The notes below the pieces were generated by a model. It was given only the letters and a program-made list of their open reading frames with translations, was not told the origin of the DNA and searched no databases. This document shows, piece after piece, positions 3,630 through 57,792 of a DNA stretch of 64,000 bases. How positions within the stretch are numbered: the first letter of the stretch is position 1; the number at the start of each line of letters is the position of its first letter. The position numbers and the translations under genes are program-made. Origin of the DNA: Paraspadella gotoi (Eukaryota > Animalia > Chaetognatha); assembly GCA_051294375.1 (NCBI GenBank), contig CM119269.1:6035531-6099530 (forward strand). Direction: 5' to 3'.

Positions 3630-4446
3630 AACCCGCCGCTATAAAAAAAATCGTCGTTTGCAAACCTTTGAAGATTTTTTTTGAATAAAAACCAAAGTCA
3701 TTTATATATTCTAATTTCATATTGATTGGTTATGATTTGACTTGGCAATGACCGGAGAAAAGTTGCCTTAAAAATCGACTTTCATTTTAAATCTTTTTGT
3801 CCAACTCTCTGAATATTTTTTAAAAAACTTTTACATAAAAAGTTATCATTATTTACATCTTCTGAAAGCTCTTTGAAATTTAAAGATAATGACATATTTA
3901 AGAATATTGTAACATAAAATTGAAATAATAAAATCATCAAATATATTTTTTCAAATAGCTGACCTATTTAAACTATTTTGATCAAACCAATTATTGTTTA
4001 TATAGGTATCATAAAAACTCTTGAGGAAGACTAAATTAAAATGGTTAAAAATAATTTAATAATTATTCAAAACCTTTGTTGATTTACAGCTGAATAGCCT
4101 AATTTTTATATTATAGGATTTTTAATTATGCCATTCTTTTCATATTTCCGAGAACTTTTAGAAGAGATTAATAATGATATATTTTTCTATAAACGTTTTT
4201 GAAAAAATATTCAGAAAGTTAAATGAAAAGATTAAAGAAAAAAAAAGAATTTTAAAATGAAACAGGATTTTTAAGGCAACTTTTCTCTGCTCATTTGCCA
4301 AGTCAAATCCTAACAAATCAATATAAAAATAAAATATATAAATGAATTTACTTTTTACTACAAAAAATATTTTTAGATTAAAAAAATCTTCAAAGGTTTG
4401 CAAATTACTATTTTTTTCTAGCGGCGAATTGTCGTGTGTCACCTTG
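3630..4446. mobile_element. Tc1/mariner-type MITE, first copy (left end lost in N gap)
   Basis: Long imperfect inverted repeats (tttgcaaacctttgaagattttt / aaaaatcttcaaaggtttgcaaa; gatttgacttggcaa / ttgccaagtcaaatc). Right end is gtcaccttg followed by TA. Confidence 0.7.
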
Positions 4447-5923
4447 TATATTGTACAACTCATAAAACCCAAGTAGTAAATAATTCTATCCACACACGCA
4501 AAAAAAAAAAAACCCGAGACGCCCACTTTCTTTTTTTAACGATTACGACTATAGACAAAGAAAATGAGTCGCGATAAAAATTTCGTCAATTTAAAAAGAA
4601 AATAAGAGAAGAGGGTAATAAAAGTGAGAAAGAATTAGAAAGCAATAAAACAATAAAACGAGTTGTATAAGCGGGCGTGGTTGCCTTTCCATTTTTTTAA
4701 ACCACGCGGTTTTTTNNNNNNNNNNNNNNNNNNNNNNNNNCTGCCACAATCCTTCGTGGAAACCTTCCCTTATTCGCGTTATTATCTCTATTTGTATTCC
4801 TTTTTTTTGCTGTTAATCTTTTCTCCTTAATTATCTTTTGTTTCCTCTTTACGAATGACTCAATTTAAGTCGCGTCCTTCTTCGGATCTACATTCTCTCT
4901 CTCTCCGTCTCTCTCAACTCCTCTCTCTGCTCTCCTTCTCTCCTCCTTCTCTCTCTCTCTCTCTCCTTCTCTCTTTCTCTCTTCCGGAATCCTGTACCAA
5001 GAGTACCACGCCCAATCTCCCAACCTTATTTTCGTCCGTCTCGTCTGGTGACTTGTTTTTTGACAAGTTAGGTTGTTAAATAAAATCCATTGGAATCCGG
5101 TGACCTAAAACTTATTCTGTGATCAGTACATCGATTAAAAATGAGAAGTCAAAAAATTAATGTCACTGAACGACTATGTTTCCTTCATTAGTAAACGGTC
5201 GTGTGAATCTTATATATCACAAGACTAACCTTGTGATTGGTGACCTGCTAATGACCGGTCGTGGTTGAGACGTTTATTTTTTTTTTTGTTTTTTTTTTTT
5301 GTTGTTTTTGCGCAAGGAGAAAAAAGAGAAGAGAAAGAGAAAGAGAGAGAGAGACAGAAAGAGAAGAGGAGAATAGAGAGATTGTACCTTCGCGGTCAGA
5401 GTTAATTAATGAATTCCCCATTTTTCACCGAATAACGAATGTTGTTGTTGTCTTGCCCAATTGTTCGTACAATCAAGTGCCTCTGTCCCTCCCGTCCGTC
5501 CGATAAACAAACATTTATCTCAATTAAGGTCGACGTCTTTGGCGCCAAGAGCGAAAAAGAAAAAAATAAAAATTTACTTTAAAAAAAAAACCAAAGGATC
5601 GAATATCCTTGGACTCTACAGACCTCCAACGAACGGCGCCCGATCGAATCGAGCCGCGTTACGACGGCCGACAGAAATAGTTTTTTTTTTTTTGGGTGGG
5701 CACCCCGAGGTCAAACCGTAAATCGCCTCCTCGGGAATTCGGTTCGAACAATTTATGGTTTTTTAACTACTTTGTAATCGCTTTTTCGCGACGGTGTGCG
5801 CGTTGAGGGAGAAGATTTTTTTTTTTTTTTTTTTGTGATTTATAGTTTATGAACAGTTTGACTTTTTACACACAAGGAATTTTTTTTTTCTTTTTAATTT
5901 GTGTGAAAATTAATAATTAAGTA

Positions 5924-6748
5924 CAATGGTGACATACGACAAACCGCGCCGCTATAAAAAAAATCGTCGTTTTGCAACCTTTGAAGATTTTTTATTTAAT
6001 AAAACCAAAGTGCCATATTATATATTCTAATTTCAATATTGATTGCGATGATTTGACTTGGCAATGCCGCGAGAAAAGTTGCCTTAAAAATCGGACCTTT
6101 CATTTTAATCTTGCAATATTTTTAAAAAACTTTTACATAAAAAAGTTATCAATTATTTACATCTTCTGAAAGCTCTTTGAAATTTAAAAGATAATGACAT
6201 ATTTAAGAATATTGTAACATAAAATTGAAATATAAATCTCAAATATATTTTTCAATAGCTGACCTATTTAAACTATTTTGATCAAACCAATTATTGTTTA
6301 TATAGGTATCATAAAAACCTGTTGAGGAAGACTAAATTTAAAATGGTTAAAAATAATTTAATAATTATTTCAAAAACCTTTGTTGATTTACAGCTGAATA
6401 GCCTAATTTTTATATTATAGGATTTTTAATTATGCCATTCTTTTCATATTTCCGAGAACTTTTAGAAAGAGATTAATAATGATATATTTTTATATAAACG
6501 TTTTTGAAAAAAATATCAAGAAAGTTAATGAAAGATTAAAGAAAAAAAAAGAATTTTAAAATGAAACAGGATTTTTTAAGGCAACTTTTCTCTGCTCATT
6601 TGCCAAGTCAAATCCTACAAATCAATATAAAAAAAAATATATAAATGAATTTACTTTTACTACAAAAAATATTTTTAGATTAAAAAAATCTTCAAAGGTT
6701 TGCAAATTACTATTTTTTTTCTAGCGGCGAATTGTCGTGTGTCACCTG
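5924..6748. mobile_element. Tc1/mariner-type non-autonomous MITE (~825 bp)
   Basis: Ends read TA|CAATGGTGACATACGACAA ... TTGTCGTGTGTCACCTG|TA. Imperfect inverted repeats extend ~250 bp inward. TA flanks, no ORF. Confidence 0.75.
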
Positions 6749-7269
6749 TATATTGTACAACTCATAAAAACCCAAGTAGTAAATAATTCTATCCACACAC
6801 GCAAAAAAAAAAAAAACCCGAGACGCCCACTTTCTTTTTTAACGATTACGACTATAAGACAAAGAAAATGAGTCGCGATAAAAATTTCGTCAATTTAAAA
6901 AGAAAATAAGAGAAGAGGGTATAATAAAAGTGAGAAAGAATTAGAAAGCAATAAAACAATAAAACGAGTTGTATAAGCGGGCGTGGTTGCCTTTCCATTT
7001 TTTTAAACCACGCGGTTTTTTTTTTTTTTTTTTTTTTTTTTTGCGTTGTTGTTTGTTTCTTAAAGTTTTTCGTTTCGTTTTGTTTTTTTTTTTTTTTGGT
7101 TTTGTTCTCTTTCTGCGTCGTCGCCGTCGATGTTGCGAATCTCATTTTCTGTTCCTCGATTTTTCGCTTTTAAGTAAAACCGCAACGAAGACTCGTCGGA
7201 CAAACGAAGAGGCTCCTCCTCTTCCTCCTCCTCTTCCTCCTACACTCGTGCCTGGTCTCTCTCTCTCTC

Positions 7270-8822: not shown

Positions 8823-9057
8823 GTTCGAGGGAAAGAAAGAAAGAAAAGAAAACGGAAGTGAGAGGGGATGGAAGGTGTTGTTTGGCTGATGAGAATGTGA
8901 GTTGGTGGAAAGTGTGGTGATTAAATCAGAGTAGGAAGATTATTGTACAATGCGTATGTTGATGAGAAATGTTCAGAATTAAGATTGGATCGTCTAACTA
9001 AGAAGAGAGGAGATAGTCAATAAGAAGGGGTGGGGATTCTAAAACGGGAAATAAAGT

Positions 9058-9186
<129 letters not shown>

Positions 9187-9278
9187 GGTGAAAACGAGGG
9201 TAAAAACGAGTCTGAACCAGGAAGAGAGGAATGTTTCCGATGAAGCGTGTAAGTGCTGTGAGAGAAAGATAGTAGTAA

Positions 9279-9346
<68 letters not shown>

Positions 9347-9608
9347 CAGAAAGACGAAATTGAGGGACATGTAGAGAGAATGAGGGGATTACAATGCGAG
9401 AAAAAAAACGGCGGCAGTGACTCGTGAGAGAAAGAGAAAAAAGAGAGTGAATGAGAGCAGAATGTGAATAAATGGGAGACGACGCGAAATCTGCTGATTC
9501 TTCACAATCACAGCCGCGTGAGAGAGAAGACATCGTGAATCGCGAAGATGAATTTCGTAAAAACTTAAGATTAACAAAATGAAAAAAATGACTAAATCAT
9601 ACATAATA

Positions 9609-10436: not shown

Positions 10437-11105
10437 TCTCTCTCTTTGGATGCGAGAGAGAATCATCGGCGCGAAGTTTCGAGCGAAATCATCTCGATAA
10501 CAGCGAAATGGAGAGGAACGATAACAAATTAGCAATCATTTGGAGATTGAGAATGAAGAGTCATTAAGTTATTGAAGAAGTTTGTTGTTAAAAAGTTAAA
10601 AAGTGGAGAGTTGTTTTTACTACATTAGAATATGACTGCTGAATGTTGACAATTGCTTAACTAAAGCAAACAGTTTTTTTTCTCCCAGCTGATTTGTAGT
10701 TGTTTTATCCCTTCATCGAATCCAGATTAGGTTAAAAAAAAAAAAATTTTTTTAATTTTTTCAAGTGTATTTTTATTAATATTTTTTTAAATATTTTTAA
10801 AGTTATCGATCAGCGAGACTGCGATTTCAAATTTATCAGCCGTCAGCATAGTCATTCAATTTGCTCATTTTTGTCATTTCTACAAAACGTTGTATATAAA
10901 TTCCCGCCGGGGCCTCTGGCCTTAATGCATTCAATACAATTTATGCCGTCTCATTCTTATTCCGAGGAGAAGAAGAGAAAGAATCCAGATTAAATGCGGC
11001 GGAAAAAAAATGGAATCGTTTTCTCTCTTTTTTTAAAAAGATTTATATTATAAACAATGACCTTTAGGATGATCGGGAGATGGGTCGATAGGGGTAGGGG
11101 GGTTG

Positions 11106-11245
<140 letters not shown>

Positions 11246-12061
11246 GTATTTAGAGAGTTACAAGATAGTAAGCAGTATATAGGGTGATAGACAGACGCGG
11301 GTCTATTACCCCTTCCTCATTCACCTCCTCTTCATCCTCCTCCCAGGTATTCGGATTCGTGACTTTACTTCCGGTTAGGATATCTTTTCAGAGGTAAAAT
11401 ACATCAATTCAGATACTATTAATGCTTAATTCTATTAGCTTAATCCTTAACATCAGAATTTCGATTCTGCGCGTTTACATTATTAAATTTCTTGTAGTCA
11501 TCGATCTTCAGCGCAATGTGCAATTACATCCCCACATCCAGCAATTCTCTTCGATTCACGATTTCCCAGCAACTTTTCTTCCATCGATTTTTCTCCGGCG
11601 ACAAAAACTTTTTCTGTCAACTCAAAAGATAAAAAAAAAACCTCGAGAGAGAATATTCCCTCAAGATTCCATACTCAACCAATCAAAGGGCGGAAGAAAA
11701 ACCTCCTCACTCCTCAGCCAATCAACGAATTCTTCAACCGATGGAAGCCAATCATTAATTCTCTCTCTTCCTCTCGGAATATTAGACTGAATTTCCAGTC
11801 AATCATTTCAACTCGACCGTCGGAGTTTTGACGGTCGGAGTTTTAATGCAGAGATTGTTTTGACAATCATCAATTCTCCAGCAGCTCAACAATAGGCGAT
11901 GGAACGGGTGTGAAGAGTAGATGGGAGACAAGCACCCAAACCAAGCAAATAAAAAAGGAGACAAGCATCCAGCTTTGCCTCGGCTCAAAAATGGACTCTT
12001 TCTCAGCTGCGACTCTCTTCTGCGTCGCTTTAGATCAATGAGAAAATAATTATTTTCCAAA

Positions 12062-14871: not shown

Positions 14872-15690
14872 GATAAAGGGTGCGACTGTTTTTTTTCTTT
14901 CTGACATCAGAACGAAGTAGAACTGAAGAAAATAAATTAGTCACACAAAATAAATTAGTCACACTGAAAGGTTTTTGGCAGTTTTGATTTTTTTTTCCGG
15001 AGTTGAAGGATCAAAAGAAAATACAATTTTGCGAGGCTTAAATTAAAACCTCCCATGGCATGCTTCTATTTTTTAGAAAGCGAAAAAAAAGAAGATTTCT
15101 TTGAATTTGTTTTTTTTTTTGGTTTTTTTTTTTTAGAAAAAAAAACCTTCTTTACATTTTTGCAAAATATGAGGAAAATTCAGCCTAAAAAAAAAAGTGG
15201 AAAGAAATTTCGGGGAAAAACTCTTCATTCCTTTCGTTTCATTTTATCCTCGGAAATGAGGTCATAAAAAAAAAAAAGAAAAAGAAAAAAAAGAGAGAAA
15301 ACCGAGTTTGGGGATTTAAAAAAGGGGGAAAAAATTGAGGAGAGAAGAGAGAGCGCTCGACGCTTCTCCCCCCCCCCCCGCCCTCAAAAAAAGTCAAGGG
15401 ATTAAAACTTGGGATCGAAAAAGGAGCAAAAAAAAAAGGTGACTAAGGCGTCAGGAAAAAAAAAGGCTTGAAATTGGCAGAGGATGAGCGGAAGTCGGAG
15501 AATAAAGCGAATAAAAATCGAGACTCAAATTGATAAAAACATTGAATTGTATTGTAAAATAACTAAAAAATAATTAGATTTAAAAATATTTCTAACAATA
15601 AACTTATCAAATGAGATGATTGAAATAATTGTATTGTGGCAGCAAGACTTAAAGCTGCCTCACTGCTGTCCGTCCTCAGCCTCGTCTCAA

Positions 15691-15747
15691 TGGCTGAGCA
15701 GGCTAAATCATCTCATTCCATCCGTGCGTCCCGGGTTCAATCCCTGG
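15691..15747 (+). promoter_or_regulatory. tRNA-derived Pol III internal promoter (A and B boxes) inside copy 3
   Basis: A-box-like TGGCTGAGCAGG at 15691-15702. B box GGTTCAATCCC at 15734-15744, within a T-arm CCGGG-TTCAATC-CCTGG. Confidence 0.6.
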
Positions 15748-15758
15748 GTATCCCGGTT

Positions 15759-15795
15759 CTGGCTTAAATGTGACGGTGCCGGTATAAACATGCCA
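15759..15795 (+). ncRNA. 5' half of a type-P5 twister ribozyme (copy 3)
   Basis: P5 CTGGC; P2' ATGT (15768-71); GA; T1 CGG; P1 TGCCGGTA; TAA (15785-87); P2 ACAT; GC; start of P3. Confidence 0.75.
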
Positions 15796-17056
15796 GGCAG
15801 TGATTTCTATGCGGGTATTTTCAACAATGCAATTGAAACTTATATAACTATTATTTATTTATTCCCACTGACAAAAGAGAGAGATTCAAATGGTCAACGA
15901 CAAAAGTTCAAAATGGACAAATGGACATAATTTTTTTATTAAAAGTAGCAAAAAATGGTATTTANNNNNNNNNNNNNNNNNNNNNNNNNNNNNNNNNNNN
16001 NNNNNNNNNNNNNNNNNNNNNNNNNNNNNNNNNNNNNNNNNNNNNNNNNNNNNNNNNNNNNNNNNNNNNNNNNNNNNNNNNNNNNNNNNNNNNNNNNNNN
16101 NNNNNNNNNNNNNNNNNNNNNNNNNNNNNNNNNNNNNNNNNNNNNNNNNNNNNNNNNNNNNNNNNNNNNNNNNNNNNNNNNNNNNNNNNNNNNNNNNNNN
16201 NNNNNNNNNNNNNNNNNNNNNNNNNNNNNNNNNNNNNNNNNNNNNNNNNNNNNNNNNNNNNNNNNNNNNNNNNNNNNNNNNNNNNNNNNNNNNNNNNNNN
16301 NNNNNNNNNNNNNNNNNNNNNNNNNNNNNNNNNNNNNNNNNNNNNNNNNNNNNNNNNNNNNNNNNNNNNNNNNNNNNNNNNNNNNNNNNNNNNNNNNNNN
16401 NNNNNNNNNNNNNNNNNNNNNNNNNNNNNNNNNNNNNNNNNNNNNNNNNNNNNNNNNNNNNNNNNNNNNNNNNNNNNNNNNNNNNNNNNNNNNNNNNNNN
16501 NNNNNNNNNNNNNNNNNNNNNNNNNNNNNNNNNNNNNNNNNNNNNNNNNNNNNNNNNNNNNNNNNNNNNNNNNNNNNNNNNNNNNNNNNNNNNNNNNNNN
16601 NNNNNNNNNNNNNNNNNNNNNNNNNNNNNNNNNNNNNNNNNNNNNNNNNNNNNNNNNNNNNNNNNNNNNNNNNNNNNNNNNNNNNNNNNNNNNNNNNNNN
16701 NNNNNNNNNNNNNNNNNNNNNNNNNNNNNNNNNNNNNNNNNNNNNNNNNNNNNNNNNNNNNNNNNNNNNNNNNNNNNNNNNNNNNNNNNNNNNNNNNNNN
16801 NNNNNNNNNNNNNNNNNNNNNNNNNNNNNNNNNNNNNNNNNNNNNNNNNNNNNNNNNNNNNNNNNNNNNNNNNNNNNNNNNNNNNNNNNNNNNNNNNNNN
16901 NNTTCTTGATTAGAAAATGCAGCAGATGACTTGAATTAATTCCAAGTCCAGCCCTCTTTGTCTTAGGATTCAAATTTAATCAATATTGTTGGTAATATTC
17001 TAGCAATATGGCAAAAAGTGGTTTTTTTGCTGAATTCCTCGATAGAAATCACTGCC
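15796..17056. mobile_element. Unclassified TIR DNA transposon (interior mostly N gap 15965-16902)
   Basis: Perfect 15-bp TIRs GGCAGTGATTTCTAT (15796-15810) and ATAGAAATCACTGCC (17042-17056). 4-bp TSD GCCA at 15792-15795 and 17057-17060. Confidence 0.8.
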
Positions 17057-17103
17057 GCCAGTGACAGGAGGCGGTCACTGAGGGTCCGCAGCCCCTACGC
17101 CAG
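17057..17103 (+). ncRNA. 3' half of a type-P5 twister ribozyme (copy 3)
   Basis: P3 CAGTGAC/GTCACTG; P4 AGGG/CCCT around loop T-CCG-CA-GC, where CCG pairs with CGG at 15774-76; P5' GCCAG. Confidence 0.75.
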
Positions 17104-17669
17104 TTGGTGAGATACCCCGCGCCCCGGGTATCACAGGCTATCCTCCCGTTGCCATAGTATTCCGATTTTCTTACAATTTACATTAAATAAATTCTGACCT
17201 TTTTGAAATTATCGTGCTTCTCTCGGAAACTAAATTTTTTGATTGAATTTTGGTTTAATTTGGTAAATGTTGTCAAAGATGAAGCCTTTTCAACGTCCGC
17301 CAGACAAAATTGTCGCGAAATTTTTTTTTTGCTAAACTTGGTTGTTTTGTGATCGAGTTGTAAAGTTGTTGTTGTTGTTGTTGTTATTTGGTCCGTTAAT
17401 GGTCGTCGTTTTTTTACCATAAAAATCAACAAATATAAATAAACGTAAATAATATAGTTTATTAAACATTATATCTTAGATCATCATACTATTAGATCAG
17501 AAACAGACATACGGACAAATAGAATCTTGAGTCGCGGCGACGACGACGACGACGACGTCGACGACGACGACGACGACTTCAAAACCCGACGTCGAATTTC
17601 AATTTAAATTTTGATGCTTTTCCTCATAAATCTCGGACGACGACGGCGAAACGTCAAAGTGAGACGTCG

Positions 17670-21439: not shown

Positions 21440-22440
21440 ATCGCTCTCTCACTCTCACTCGTTCAAGTTCTATCGAGAAAGTCGTTCAGGTTCAAAGGAT
21501 CGAGATTCGAGACAAGAGGTAAATATGAAATTACATCCGGGAATTCGTTAAAAAAGGTGAGCATCAAACTCCATCCGGGGATTCGATAGAAGAGGTAAAG
21601 ATGAAATTATATACATACATTTAGTGAAAGAAAAAGATAAATTTTTATCCGTTGATTTTAAATACTAAATTTAGTCTAAAAGTTAAATTCACATCCGGGG
21701 AAGTTTGAAAATATCCGTTTAGCGAATGGATCGAATAAAATCTTTGCCCATTTTTTTGATCGCGTCGAATGTCCTTCCGTTTATAAATTTATTTCTCGTT
21801 TTTATTTTACTCTGACATTTTATTGTTGTTGTTTTTTTTTTTTGTACAGATATACATACATATAAAATAAAGCAAGCCTTACAAAGAAAATCTCTCTTTG
21901 AGCACAAGATCTTCGTTACAATAGTCAAACCTTTTTTCTCCAATTGTAACAATTGGCAAAAAGAAGACAATAGCATACAATACAATAAAATATAAAATAC
22001 AATACAATGCCTCTATAAGATTCTTTAATCGAGATTTAGTATCATTCTTAATCGTTAGGTAATCTACGAGACAAAAAAGTTCGGTTCATCCAATGTGTTG
22101 AGCCGAATTGACTCTTTTCACATAATATGACATGACATGACAAGACTTTCTTAGCTCGTGTATTTATTACATGCACTGAATCGAAATTCCGTCTTTTATT
22201 CTTTTTATTTTTAGGATTTCCTGAAGGCGGCGATAGCGGTCACTTAAATTTGATGTTTTTTCCTGTCTTAACAAATGAGCAACGAACTGTGGGCGATTTA
22301 TATGCATTTTTAATGTTAGTGGGACAGACCGACGGAGAGACATACCGACCGACCGACCGAAAAGTGACTTATAGAGCTTATAGAGGTTATATACTGATAG
22401 AGCTCCGCGAGTACTCCCGGCGTAACTAAAAATCGTTAAC

Positions 22441-22690
22441 TGTGGCGGTATATTCACACCGCCTCACGTCCACCGTCCTTCAGACAATCCCATTGGCTCA
22501 GAAGGGGAACACACAAAGCGTAGTGTTCCATCCACAGTCCTAACGACTTCCCTCTGCGTTGGCAAAGCGAGACCGTCCTAGGGTAACCGCGCCAGTGACT
22601 GGAGGCGTCACTGAGGGTCGGAAGCCCCCAAAGCCAACAGTGAGATGCCCCACCACAATGGGCATCACAGGCAACCCGGCTGTTGCCATA
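22441..22690 (+). mobile_element. 250-bp solo-LTR/retrozyme-like element containing a twister ribozyme (copy 1, complete)
   Basis: Ends TGTGGC...GCCATA form a short imperfect inverted repeat. 4-bp TSD TAAC at 22437-22440 and 22691-22694. Homologous to 24664-24901 (-) and 15635-17156 (+). Confidence 0.85.
22556..22634 (+). ncRNA. Type-P5 (circularly permuted) twister ribozyme; predicted cleavage between U22584 and A22585
   Basis: In order: GCGTTG(G) [P5], CAAA, GCGA [P2'], GA, CCG [T1], TCCTAGGG [P1], TAA, CCGC [P2], GC [T2], CAGTGAC..GTCACTG [P3], A, GGG, T, CGG [T1'], AA, GC [T2'], CCC [P4'], CAAAGC [P5']. This matches the twister core order UAA-P2-GC-P3-P4(U-NNN-AAGC) plus P2'-GA-NNN-P1. 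Confidence 0.8.
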
Positions 22691-24208
22691 TAACTCGTTA
22701 ATCTCTCCCTGAATTCCGCCAGAGCGAAAATACAATGGTTATATTGCATTACGCTCCGTCAATCTCTCAACTGGTCGGAGCCAGACCGGAAGACGATCGC
22801 GAAGCAAGTGGAAAGTAAGATTCCTTTATTTCTTATTTTCCGTTTTTCTTTTCTCTTATTTTTTTTTTCGTTTTTACTCCGCTTTATTTTCACTATCAAC
22901 ATCCAATTGTTATTGTTATTATTTTATTATTGTTATTGTTTTTAATCTCAATTATCATTATATCTCCTCGTGTATTTTACGTTAATACAACTTTTCTAAA
23001 TCATTCCTAATGAGAGACTTTTCGTGCTCCGGGGTCGAATCCGTAGACTTCAGTAAAGGCTCAAGGTCAAGGACCGGAAACGTCGTCAACTTGAAATGTC
23101 TCGAAGAAAGTTGCTAAAAAGCCGAAAAAATCTATCAAAAATCACTTGTACTGACAAGAGATTTTATTTGAGGAAAATGAGTGTATTTTTGAGTAGAGAA
23201 ATCAAACGATGAGTGGACTAATCAATTACAATGAGTGGGTAAATCTCCGAAACTATTTCGTAAAAGAATCGTTGAGGTCCCAGGCCATAAAATAAAATAA
23301 CTTTACTAAGAAGGAAAGGTTCCAAGAGAGGAAGAGAAAAAGAGCCCGCTTCACCTAAACTGCTTTGAGTAAGAGTGTGGAAAAAAAAGAGAGAGAGAGA
23401 GAGAGTTAGGTCAATCTCAGGTCACGTGAATGAGCCGGTAAATCACGAGATGAATGGTCCAGTAAATTTCGGGGATATCTGGAATGAATTTCCTCTGACT
23501 AGTGAAACTTCTTCTCACCAATGTTACTTAACTTCTTTGCTATCGCGATTTCCTTATGATCTTTTATCTTTTCTCGCTTCTTGCGAATTTTTAATTTCAT
23601 TTTATTTTCCATTTATTTTTTATCTTTCTTTCCCTTTCTTTCCTCTACCTAAAAAAACCATAAGACTAAGAAATACGATCAATAAATAAAAGCCTCGGAA
23701 TTCTGTAAATAAAACGCATGTTTTATTCTTCCCAGGAACTTTTCTTTTATTTACGTTAAAATATTCAATATCTCCGAACAGGTCTAACTTTTAAAAGGTT
23801 ACATTATTATTATTATTATCATTATTATTAATATTATTAAGTAGAAAAACTACGGAAAGAGGCAGCTCGTGATAAAAGATTCTGAAGCTAGCATATCGAC
23901 ATATTTACAAATCATTTTCTCGACGAACCAAATATTTTCAAAAACACAGTTGCTTTAGCTTTTTTCTCGATCACAAATTCTTTAGAAAAAAATATCGTCT
24001 GACTTTTGCTTAAATCTTTTTTAAGAACATTGCTCATTGCCCAACTGTTGCAAAGCCCTTGACCAACGTTGTCCCACTGTTGCCCGACTGTTGCGCGACG
24101 ACGAAAATACTTCTCTCTTTCGATTCTCAATTTCTGTCCGACGTCCGCCCACCAGTTTTCTCCGCTCCGCATCTTCGGTCGGACGGAGGAAAGGATCCGT
24201 CGAATCGA

Positions 24209-24663: not shown

Positions 24664-24901
24664 ACAGCCGGGTTACCTGTGATGCCCATTGGGATGGTGC
24701 ATCTCACTGTTGGCGTTGGGGGCTTCCGACGCTCAGTGACGCCTCCAGTCACTGGCGCGGTTACCCGAGGACGGTATCGCTTTGCCAACGCATAGGGAAG
24801 TGTGGATGGAACACTACGCCTGGGATGGTGTGTTCCCCCTCTGAGCCAATGGTATTGGCTGAACGATGGAGGATGTGAGGTGGTATGAATATACCACCAC
24901 A
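24664..24901 (-). mobile_element. Twister-bearing element, copy 2 (last ~8 nt of the 3' terminus missing)
   Basis: The reverse complement aligns to 22441-22684 along its whole length. It starts TGTGGTGG preceded by GTAT. Indels fall in loops or linkers. Confidence 0.85.
24713..24791 (-). ncRNA. Type-P5 twister ribozyme, probably inactivated copy
   Basis: Same 79-nt layout with a perfect P5 (GCGTTGG/CCAACGC). However, GA is changed to TA at the conserved general-base G, and P4 GGG is changed to GCG. Confidence 0.7.
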
Positions 24902-41005: not shown

Positions 41006-41827
41006 GACCCGAGGGCGGAGAAGCTTTGTGAATGAATTTGACATTTCGTCCTTAAATTTTTCTTTCTTTTTTTTCTTCTCTTTTTTTCCCGCCTCTCTTT
41101 TTCCCTCTCTCTCAAGGAGGAATGAGGAGCTGACTCCTAAAAAAAAAAATCTGCCCTTCACAGTTTTTTTTTTCTTTTCTTATTTTCGTATCATTTTTTA
41201 TTCTTTCTTTTTTTTCCTCATTTATACTTATTATATTATATTTCCGTCGGCGTCTATTCTTCCTTTCCTTTTTGAGTAATCCATTTTCGATTGAAACTCA
41301 ACGTGACTGATGAGCGAGCGAGGCTTTGAAAATTGGGCGTCGTCGTAGCCTCCATCATCGGGTGGGGGTTGCGTCGGGCGTCGGGCATCTAATGGTCAGC
41401 AGAGACGGCGTCGGGCTGGCGATGATTGATGCCGAGCGATGCAATTTCGATCCGATGATTATGATCGGATAATTGTAAATAGGTTGTACCAATTTCTTAT
41501 ACATGATGATCTTTTAAAAGGGCCCAAAAACCATATTCCTGCCCCCCCAAAACAATTGGTTCACTCCTCGCCACTGCACTGTTCGGATACGATATCATTT
41601 TTCCATTTCCGACTTCGAATAAAAAAAACTCCGCGCGCGATTTTCTCGCCAGCGTTTGTTCGCTCTGTGTTTGTTTTGTGTTTGTTTTGTGTTTGTTTTG
41701 TGTTTGTTTTGTGTTCTGAGTTTGGAGATGTTTTCCTGTTTTTCTGTTTCGCCAGAAGTTTTGTTATGATGCGAAATCGAATTCTGATCCCGACTTCCTG
41801 GACGTGAGTCCCTCGTCGTGTCGTGAT

Positions 41828-41946
<119 letters not shown>

Positions 41947-42140
41947 GTGCAGGCGAGCAGAAAGATTCATTTTTGGCTATGTATAATTTTTAGACATAGT
42001 ATTAACTATGAACAAGATACAAATTAGAATTTTACAATTTAAGAGATATTCTTATATGATTACAAAGCCTTGGTATAAATTATAAAGATTTATATAAAGA
42101 TTCTTTTTCGCCACTCCTAACGAACGAACCCAATCCTCTC

Positions 42141-57600: not shown

Positions 57601-57660
57601 ACTAAAATCTTTACTTATCTATCCCTCTGAATTAAACTCTTATATTTCAATTTCATTCAT

Positions 57661-57723
57661 TTCGGGATCAGGCTGTAACACCATGTACAGGCGATTTAAG
57701 CGCCCCGTCCTCTTAACTGCCAG
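57661..57723 (-). ncRNA. Degenerate, 3'-truncated twister-like motif directly downstream of a tRNA-like head
   Basis: Minus strand reads CTGGC..AAGAG-GA-CGG-GGCGCT-TAA-ATC-GC-CTGTA..TACAG..T-CCCG-AA. The order matches copy 3 and P1 is self-complementary, but P2 and P4 are imperfect. Confidence 0.4.
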
Positions 57724-57792
57724 ACGACCAACGGGCTAGAACCCGGACCTTTGGGTTGGGAGGCGAATGACTGCCTACGGCATCATGGCCGC
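57724..57792 (-). pseudogene. tRNA-derived sequence (Gly-like, CCC at the anticodon position); SINE-type head or tRNA pseudogene
   Basis: 7-bp acceptor stem GCGGCCA/TGGTCGT, T arm CGGG-TTCTAG-CCCG (degenerate B box) and variable loop AGGTC. The anticodon stem is broken. Confidence 0.6.

Follow-up and report, generated by a model that had tools for sequence, protein, structure and literature searches.

What is the meaning of an eight-nucleotide palindrome that stands where the P1 helix of a twister ribozyme would be expected? The question is raised by a 64,000-nucleotide (nt) stretch of the genome of the chaetognath Paraspadella gotoi (contig CM119269.1, positions 6,035,531 to 6,099,530 of the forward strand; the window hereafter), in which copies of a 250-base-pair (bp) interspersed element are found. 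Copy 1 of this element (22441..22690, + strand) carries a motif resembling twister, a class of self-cleaving ribozymes reportedly described by Roth et al. in 2014, and the octamer TCCTAGGG (22576..22583, +) occupies its P1 position. A sequence-only reading of the window had suggested that two copies of the element could exchange strands there and that cleavage might depend on this exchange. We lean towards another answer, namely that the octamer is the shrunken P1 of a type-P5 twister that likely cleaves as a monomer at U22584/A22585, within the 250-bp element.

A predicted permuted twister motif conserved in two lineages

The predicted type-P5 (circularly permuted) twister motif covers 22558..22638 on the + strand and was delimited by hand, with a table of its pairs. 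Its first element is the 3' strand of P5 (GUUGGC, 22558-63), followed by AAA, the 3' strand of P2 (GCGA, 22567-70), GA (22571-72) and the T1 strand CCG (22573-75). The octamer comes next, and on its 3' side lies the UAA of the cleavage loop (22584-86). The 5' strand of P2 (CCGC, 22587-90) then precedes GCC (22591-93), a P3 hairpin of 6 bp (22594-22612), GA, and P4 (GGG/CCC, 22615-17 with 22626-28), whose loop L4 reads U-CGG-AA-GC (22618-25). The motif ends with the 5' strand of P5 (GCCAAC, 22633-38). The L4 side of pseudoknot T1 (U-CGG, 22618..22621) would pair with A22572 and with CCG at 22573-75. The sequence-only reading had placed the octamer at P1 of a twister-like motif, and the segment and its pair table agree with this placement.

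The reference layout combined Table 1 of PMC8501958, in which the canonical elements are UAA, GC, GUCCCAAGC, GUAAA and GAGGG, with the Rfam consensus line. All fixed twister elements are found in type-P5 order: UAA, GC(C), the GA before T1, the U...AAGC of L4 and an A-rich junction. The sole departure of copy 1 from the conserved letters concerns T1, which is CGG:CCG instead of CCC:GGG; the canonical T1 strands are GUCCCAAGC with GAGGG, and UCCC with GGGA-type partners (PMC8501958). The scissile bond is predicted at U22584/A22585 (22584..22585, +) by analogy with the U-A step of the canonical twister L1, the twister cleavage position being that stated in PMC8501958.

Two further copies lie in the window. 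Copy 3 belongs to a second subfamily and is split into a 5' half (15635..15796, +) and a 3' half (17062..17156, +), bordered by the target duplication GTAT at 15631-34 and 17157-60. Its ribozyme is discontinuous, being interrupted after 15796 by an insertion of about 1.26 kilobases (kb; 15797..17056) with terminal inverted repeats and with GCCA(G) duplicated where it joins copy 3. By BLAST, 22590-22690, which is the 3' half of copy 1, aligns with 17056-17156 at 77% identity. Contigs from four runs of the source organism were also examined (X1, X2 and X5, which are DNA, and X9, guessed to be RNA), and in other genomic copies 15796 is joined directly to 17062 onward, as seen in 24 (X1), 35 (X2), 19 (X5) and 11 (X9) loose-end records. 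This insertion, whose inverted repeats measure about 15 nt and whose sequence contains an assembly gap (N) beginning at 15965, probably represents a small element of the DNA-transposon type.

Copy 2 (24664..24901, - strand) is a decayed, 3'-truncated element with the octamer TCCTCGGG at 24771-24764. It lies inverted with respect to copy 1, with 1980 nt between the arms, and shows three defects: the invariant guanine is replaced by U (24776), P4 contains a C-C mismatch and the centre of the palindrome is broken. The sequence-only reading had already reported the broken centre, and this part stands, but the locus is on the minus strand and inverted relative to copy 1.

The evidence that carries the twister assignment comes from the comparison of copies 1 and 3. 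In copy 3 the 3' strand of P5 (15759-63) and that of P2 (15768-71, then GA) are followed by the T1 strand CGG (15774-76), the octamer TGCCGGTA (15777-15784, +), UAA (15785-87), the 5' strand of P2 (15788-91) and GCC (15792-94), while the 3' half contains the rest of P3, P4, an L4 reading U-CCG-CA-GC, the 5' strand of P5 (17099-17103), a downstream hairpin and the end of the element. With the halves joined, copy 3 forms P2 (ACAU/AUGU, 4 bp), P5 (GCCAG/CUGGC) and T1 (CCG:CGG), and P3, P4 and T2 as in copy 1. Between the two lineages P2 has changed from CCGC/GCGA to ACAU/AUGU, the fifth pair of P5 from A-U to G-C, and T1 from CGG:CCG to CCG:CGG, both unlike the canonical CCC:GGG. Both partners have been replaced in five pairs of this core (P2, P5 and T1), with no pair broken (rough p 0.005, using the local base composition). 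With the canonical letters and those of copies 1 and 3, T1 thereby occurs in three versions, each of them complementary. It is mainly because of these compensated pairs that we accept the twister fold.

The remaining core elements show varying degrees of conservation. The T1 strands are complementary in all three copies, with non-consensus letters, and pseudoknot T2 pairs G-C and C-G in all three. All three copies have UAA, with the conserved A at the scissile step (22584-86 in copy 1, 15785-87 in copy 3, and the equivalent site of copy 2). P2 has 3 bp and a C-A mismatch in copy 1 and 4 bp in copy 3; P4 has 3 bp in both. The presumed active-site guanine, the G of the GA step before T1, is found in copies 1 and 3 and is replaced by U in copy 2. 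We take it to be the probable counterpart of G45 (O. sativa numbering). The role of the invariant guanine in twister is described in PMC5408937.

The same region is spared by variation within the element family. Pieces of contigs matching copy 1 number 5951 in X1, 6791 in X2, 2544 in X5 and 409 in X9, and those matching the copy 3 subfamily 818, 987, 458 and 100, respectively. Among the contigs matching copy 1, variation at a level of 5% or more affects 22 of the 117 sites of the 5' part and 2 of the 52 of the 3' part; of the 81 ribozyme sites it affects 2, which both lie in the P3 loop. The ribozyme differs in this respect from the rest of the element (2/81 versus 24/169 variable sites, Fisher p 0.003).

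Sequence and self-complementarity of the octamer

The letters of the octamers of copies 1 and 3 had been given in the same form by the sequence-only reading and were confirmed at 22576-22583 and 15777-15784. With G-U pairs allowed, both octamers are fully self-complementary, as is the hexamer GGCGCT read on the minus strand at 57704-57699, in a candidate relative at 57.7 kb that is discussed below. The octamer of copy 2 fails at the centre, which says little because copy 2 is decayed. RNAfold returned no hairpin for any of these four segments. Twister P1 typically has at least 2 bp (PMC8501958), and 2 bp with a 4-nt loop is the maximum that can be formed here in cis, in a hairpin predicted to be neutral or destabilising (+1.0, -0.2 and +2.9 kcal/mol in copies 1, 2 and 3, respectively). 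The corresponding homodimer energies are -11.0, -6.1 and -10.9 kcal/mol, and -8.3 kcal/mol for the 57.7-kb hexamer. Copies 1 and 3 combine a helix that is too short in cis with a palindrome able to form an 8-bp duplex between two copies, an arrangement also found in double hammerheads.

The two octamers differ at five of eight positions. Three of the four self-pairs have changed from copy 1 to copy 3 (U-G to U-A, C-G to G-U and U-A to C-G), all remaining paired, and the fourth, C-G, is unchanged. The earlier claim that the letters differ and yet pair completely with themselves, with at most 2 bp in cis, has thus held for both diverged lineages. The rough chance that three changed self-pairs all stay paired is about 0.04, and that of a fixed 8-mer being self-complementary is 0.014-0.019; under the same rule 1158 of 62841 8-mers on the + strand of the whole window and 1217 of 62841 on the - strand are self-complementary (1.8-1.9%). 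The inner pairs, which can form only between molecules, comprise one that is invariant and one with a single double change, and the outer two would be retained by a plain 2-bp hairpin too. Palindromy retained in the sequences of two lineages is suggestive of selection; the sign stays suggestive because a single changed pair tells the duplex from the 2-bp hairpin.

Within the subfamilies the octamer is homogeneous. No variant reaches 5% in the octamer of copy 1 or 2% in that of copy 3 among the contigs of X1, X2, X5 and X9, and the 2% limit holds for the whole of 15746-15796. As DNA, the inner four letters of the two octamers, CTAG and CCGG, are perfect palindromes of 4 bp. Alternative partners of 5-7 nt for the octamer within the element differ between copies and none is conserved.

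Predicted cleavage by one molecule or by two

In the reading that we favour, RNA of the element would cleave itself as a single molecule between U22584 and A22585 and would do so independently of a P1 helix. The palindrome would be what is left of a hairpin that was formerly longer, or an addition of slight use, rather than an on-switch. Cleavage without a P1 helix is proposed because P1 is dispensable in published twisters: a twister lacking P1 cleaves at an almost wild-type rate (PMC5408937), and P1 length and imperfections were without effect among 2625 natural twister candidates, in a screen that covered type-P1 permutations only (PMC11662667). If P1 is dispensable here as well, the palindrome would accordingly be vestigial or of slight use.

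A control set of natural permuted twisters shows that such a reduction has a parallel. The core pattern was found at no fewer than 258 loci (20, 118 and 120 per scan), mostly chance matches. Among the matches listed, 51 distinct ones pass the filter for P2 pairing and 9 distinct ones pass those for P2 and P4; since only these 9 pass both filters, the set is unfit for an estimate of frequency. Five of the 9 have P1 hairpins of 8-11 bp, two are doubtful, and two (L013 and L064) are sequences of one family with a canonical core and a closed, non-palindromic P1 segment of 6 nt, GAACGT. The shrunken P1 of the element is therefore unusual, yet a tiny closed P1 is not unique among natural twisters. 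L013 and L064, which come from viral and metagenome contigs, lie in a short tandem, with a second P4/L4 upstream and a second P2/GAGGG downstream.

Several results weigh against a monomeric twister with a vestigial P1. Rfam gave no match at gathering thresholds in the whole window, and the best permissive match, to twister-P1, reached 15.2 bits at 22590-22633 (a local match) against a gathering score of 67.2; copy 3 gave 14.1 bits at 17049-17110 against the same 67.2, again to twister-P1. No other member of the twister clan, CL00120, scored above these permissive matches. A strict layout descriptor speaks for the motif, with a single match in the window, at 22558-22638, and a match in 1 of 200 shuffles, but this test is partly circular because the descriptor was written after copy 1 had been seen. 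When the copy 1 monomer was folded by nearest-neighbour energies without pseudoknots, a structure other than the twister was preferred (-31.5 versus -19.1 kcal/mol for the twister). In the copy 3 lineage position 6 of L4 is a C, and changes at this position gave a mean cleavage of 0.42 versus 0.76 in a large screen (PMC11662667). The published data on P1 come from open type-P1 or two-strand constructs and not from a closed P1 of 8 nt. Full self-complementarity has been kept despite five changed letters in eight, including the inner change from U-A to C-G, which is unexpected of a pure vestige (rough p 0.014-0.04). Finally, the unconstrained two-strand minimum of copy 3 is a strand-swapped dimer in which all twister helices are formed (-65.3 versus 2 x -26.0 kcal/mol).

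The low Rfam scores, far under threshold, would also suit a twister look-alike or an inactive relic, conserved through a young repeat family and carrying its palindromes by chance; so would the plain decay of copy 2, the self-complementarity of about 2% of all 8-mers and a half-motif at 57.7 kb that occurs at chance level. Such a look-alike is nevertheless unlikely. Lineages of 77% identity show compensation at five core pairs, among them pairs of a pseudoknot that a bias towards nested structure would not create. Moreover, the variation among thousands of contigs spares the ribozyme except for the P3 loop, and copies 1 and 3 both retain the conserved guanine, the cleavage-site A and the letters of T2.

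The proposal of the sequence-only reading, which the strand-swapped minimum of copy 3 supports, amounts to a double twister, in which P1 would exist only as an 8-bp helix between two copies and efficient cleavage would need both, whether joined in a single transcript or locally concentrated. The 5' part of one ribozyme (the 3' strands of P5 and P2, and the T1 strand) would then pair with the 3' part of the other. The behaviour of the octamer is consistent with this: two lineages are self-complementary with different letters, three pairs have changed and none is broken, the inner U-A to C-G included, and the 2-bp hairpin that would compete in cis is predicted to be neutral or destabilising in every copy. 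There are two independent lineages only, however, and one changed pair discriminates duplex from hairpin. A designed swapped dimer is nested and gains -13.4 kcal/mol in copy 1 and -15.1 in copy 3, and only -6.1 in the decayed copy 2; this gain is built in by the palindromy itself and is for that reason not independent evidence. Hammerheads with a short palindromic stem III provide a precedent for cleavage by paired copies, but their stem III differs from the P1 of twister, which is dispensable (PMC5408937, PMC11662667). Intermolecular dimers were present in the crystal of the O. sativa twister, where they are called artefacts (PMC5408937).

The genomic arrangement of the copies likewise speaks against a need for two of them. 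The sequence-only reading had relied on tandem copies, such as a 5' and a 3' long terminal repeat (LTR), to bring the strands together, and this premise did not survive: copy 2 is inverted relative to copy 1, separate target duplications border copies 1 and 3, which belong to different subfamilies, and loose ends in thousands of contigs enter unrelated AT-rich flanks. The window copies are dispersed single insertions. Contigs on copy 3 show no head-to-tail joint in the three DNA runs (X1, X2 and X5) and one contig with such a joint in X9. This contig, a single record of 577 nt, runs from 15795 back to 15635 and represents either two head-to-tail copies or a circle. None of the 9 natural canonical-core matches, a small set drawn from the matches listed, has a self-complementary P1, and no description of a natural dimer-dependent or palindromic-P1 twister was found in the literature searched, a limited library. 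Altogether we regard a ribozyme that depends on two copies as very unlikely.

It is just as improbable that the palindrome was kept for a reason unrelated to catalysis, be it pairing of element RNAs during propagation or a palindromic site in the DNA, with the ribozyme cleaving regardless: self-complementarity retained across both lineages, the perfect DNA palindromes CTAG and CCGG and an octamer that shows no variation at the 5% level in one large subfamily and at the 2% level in the other would fit, but the homogeneity of young subfamilies is expected without selection, the element holds no conserved alternative partner for the octamer, and no partner, protein or process was identified.

Comparison with known ribozymes

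Among the twister permutations summarised in PMC5408937, the motif resembles type-P5 members in an element order opened at P5, in the UAA loop, the GC(C) partner of T2, the GA before T1, P2, P4 and an optional P3, in an L4 of the form U-xxx-AAGC and in the possibility of both pseudoknots. It differs from them in T1 (CGG:CCG or CCG:CGG, not CCC:GGG), in scoring under the Rfam thresholds, and in lying within a eukaryotic high-copy repeat of 250 bp. Its P1 is a closed segment of 8 nt, whereas the five natural canonical-core examples among the matches listed have the 8-11-bp hairpins mentioned above.

Little or no P1 is also a feature of mini-twister (Kosutic et al. 2015, cited in PMC5408937) and of the twister T-variants, which still cleave, and the T-variants of Perere-3 share the association with a mobile element (PMC8501958). 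Those ribozymes are, however, of type P1 or two-stranded, with an open P1, and the T-variants lie at the 5' end of a non-LTR retrotransposon. Mobile-element twisters described in PMC8501958 and PMC7761336 cut at the 5' end of the element; here the predicted cut falls 144 nt inside an element of 250 nt, next to a closed P1.

Minimal hammerheads with a short palindromic stem III cleave as dimers (PMC6765202, PMC7761336), in agreement with the precedent that the sequence-only reading had invoked. The motif resembles the minimal type-I hammerheads of Penelope-like elements, newt satellite 2 and amphibian retrozymes in having a very short helix with a palindrome and in being carried by a repeat. 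It belongs to another ribozyme class: stem III of the hammerhead is required, twister P1 is reported to be dispensable, and the hammerheads are typically in tandem whereas the copies here are dispersed. Plant retrozymes are non-autonomous LTR elements with a hammerhead in each LTR of about 350 bp and with 4-bp target duplications (PMC7761336). They have in common with the element a short non-coding mobile unit, an internal self-cleaving motif (predicted here) and the 4-bp duplication, but the motif is a twister and not a hammerhead, the termini are TG...TA, and the window has no direct repeat pair. In hatchet, a 4-nt palindrome in L2 drives dimer formation in vitro and monomers are equally active (PMC6561176). 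Both are self-cleaving ribozymes, the present one by prediction, with a short non-conserved palindrome; the strand-swapped dimer was demonstrated for hatchet and is predicted here, and the dimer was proven unnecessary for the activity of hatchet.

The host element

Copy 1 has the termini TGTGGC...GCCATA and is flanked by the duplication TAAC (22437-22440 and 22691-22694). The same termini are found in copy 3, the other intact-ended copy of the window, and both have 4-bp target duplications, TAAC and GTAT, respectively. In all four runs the loose ends of contigs stack at 22441 and 22690, beyond which lie unrelated AT-rich flanks. No open reading frame of note was found between or beside the element copies in the window. 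The element is non-autonomous and very abundant, and may be similar to a short interspersed nuclear element (SINE), to a miniature inverted-repeat transposable element, or to a solo LTR or retrozyme. A reading of the copies as the LTRs of one larger element was rejected, the copies being inverted (1 and 2) or separately target-duplicated (1 and 3). A direct repeat pair sharing one target duplication is absent from the window; a primer-binding site and a polypurine tract were not searched for. An element pattern consisting of P3 and the start of P4 had no match in metagenome contigs and none in viral contigs.

Outside the ribozyme, two stems have changed on both sides with pairing kept. The 5' stem (22444-22463) is GGCGGU/ACCGCC in copy 1, GGUGGU/ACCACC in copy 2 and GGCAGC/GCUGCC in copy 3, and the 3' stem (22644-22666) is GAUGCCC/GGGCAUC in copy 1 and GAUACCC/GGGUAUC in copy 3. 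The entire 250-nt unit may be a structured RNA. Copy 1 departs from the prevailing letter at 22475, 22484, 22503, 22653 and 22655, where over 96% of the summed contig depth supports another base, and because of these five letters it is not the majority form in the sequence outside the ribozyme.

Just upstream of copy 1, at 22400-22435, the summed contig depth in X1 is about 20000, against 26 downstream of the element, and copy 1 seems to be inserted in or beside another repeat. Repeats of the window are otherwise dominated by long (GA)n and (GAAA)n microsatellites (for instance 2011-2253, 8962-9400, 11030-11300 and 41790-41955), and a duplication of about 2.3 kb involves the regions around 3900-4700 and 6200-7000.

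The 57.7-kb locus and signals of a transfer RNA

The sequence-only reading had included a relative near 57.7 kb. This candidate (57640..57792, - strand) has GA-CGG, the hexamer GGCGCT at 57704-57699, UAA and GCC, and no P4/L4 half. The letters of the hexamer are as given, but the kinship is not borne out: a profile of the 250-bp element family did not detect the locus, and the half-motif occurs at chance level (5 matches in the window versus a mean of 6.65 in 100 shuffles). In a local-alignment test 34 of 500 shuffles scored as high as the locus, a marginal result from an underpowered test, since the control alignment of copies 1 and 3 was itself equalled by 47 of 500 shuffles. The locus cannot be confirmed as a relative and is given no weight as evidence.

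A weak match to a transfer RNA (tRNA) at 57792-57723 (-, 12.8 bits) lies directly upstream of the twister-like half of this locus, and copy 3 includes at 15733-15743 a stretch similar to a T-arm or B-box, GGTTCAATCCC. Together they are a hint of tRNA-related ancestry for part of the element. ARAGORN found no tRNA gene in the window. The element may be a tRNA-derived SINE, a reading for which the 12.8-bit match at 57.7 kb is the single tRNA signal.

Implications

If the motif cleaves, it adds to twister a variant that current models miss. The new features of this variant would be a compensated, non-canonical T1, a closed P1 of 8 nt and the type-P5 order, in a eukaryotic repeat of thousands of copies. 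A cut in the middle of the element does not fit the role known from Perere-3-type elements, and would raise the question of what benefit a repeat draws from cutting itself. The palindrome has a significance of its own. Should it prove irrelevant to cleavage, hatchet would be joined by a second ribozyme documented to carry a dimer-prone but harmless palindrome. If the double twister is real, it would give the class its first dimer-gated member, and the device of minimal hammerheads would have been invented a second time, independently. In either case the palindromic P1 of the P. gotoi element offers a cheap and clear test of whether twister can be gated by the pairing of two copies, as minimal hammerheads are.

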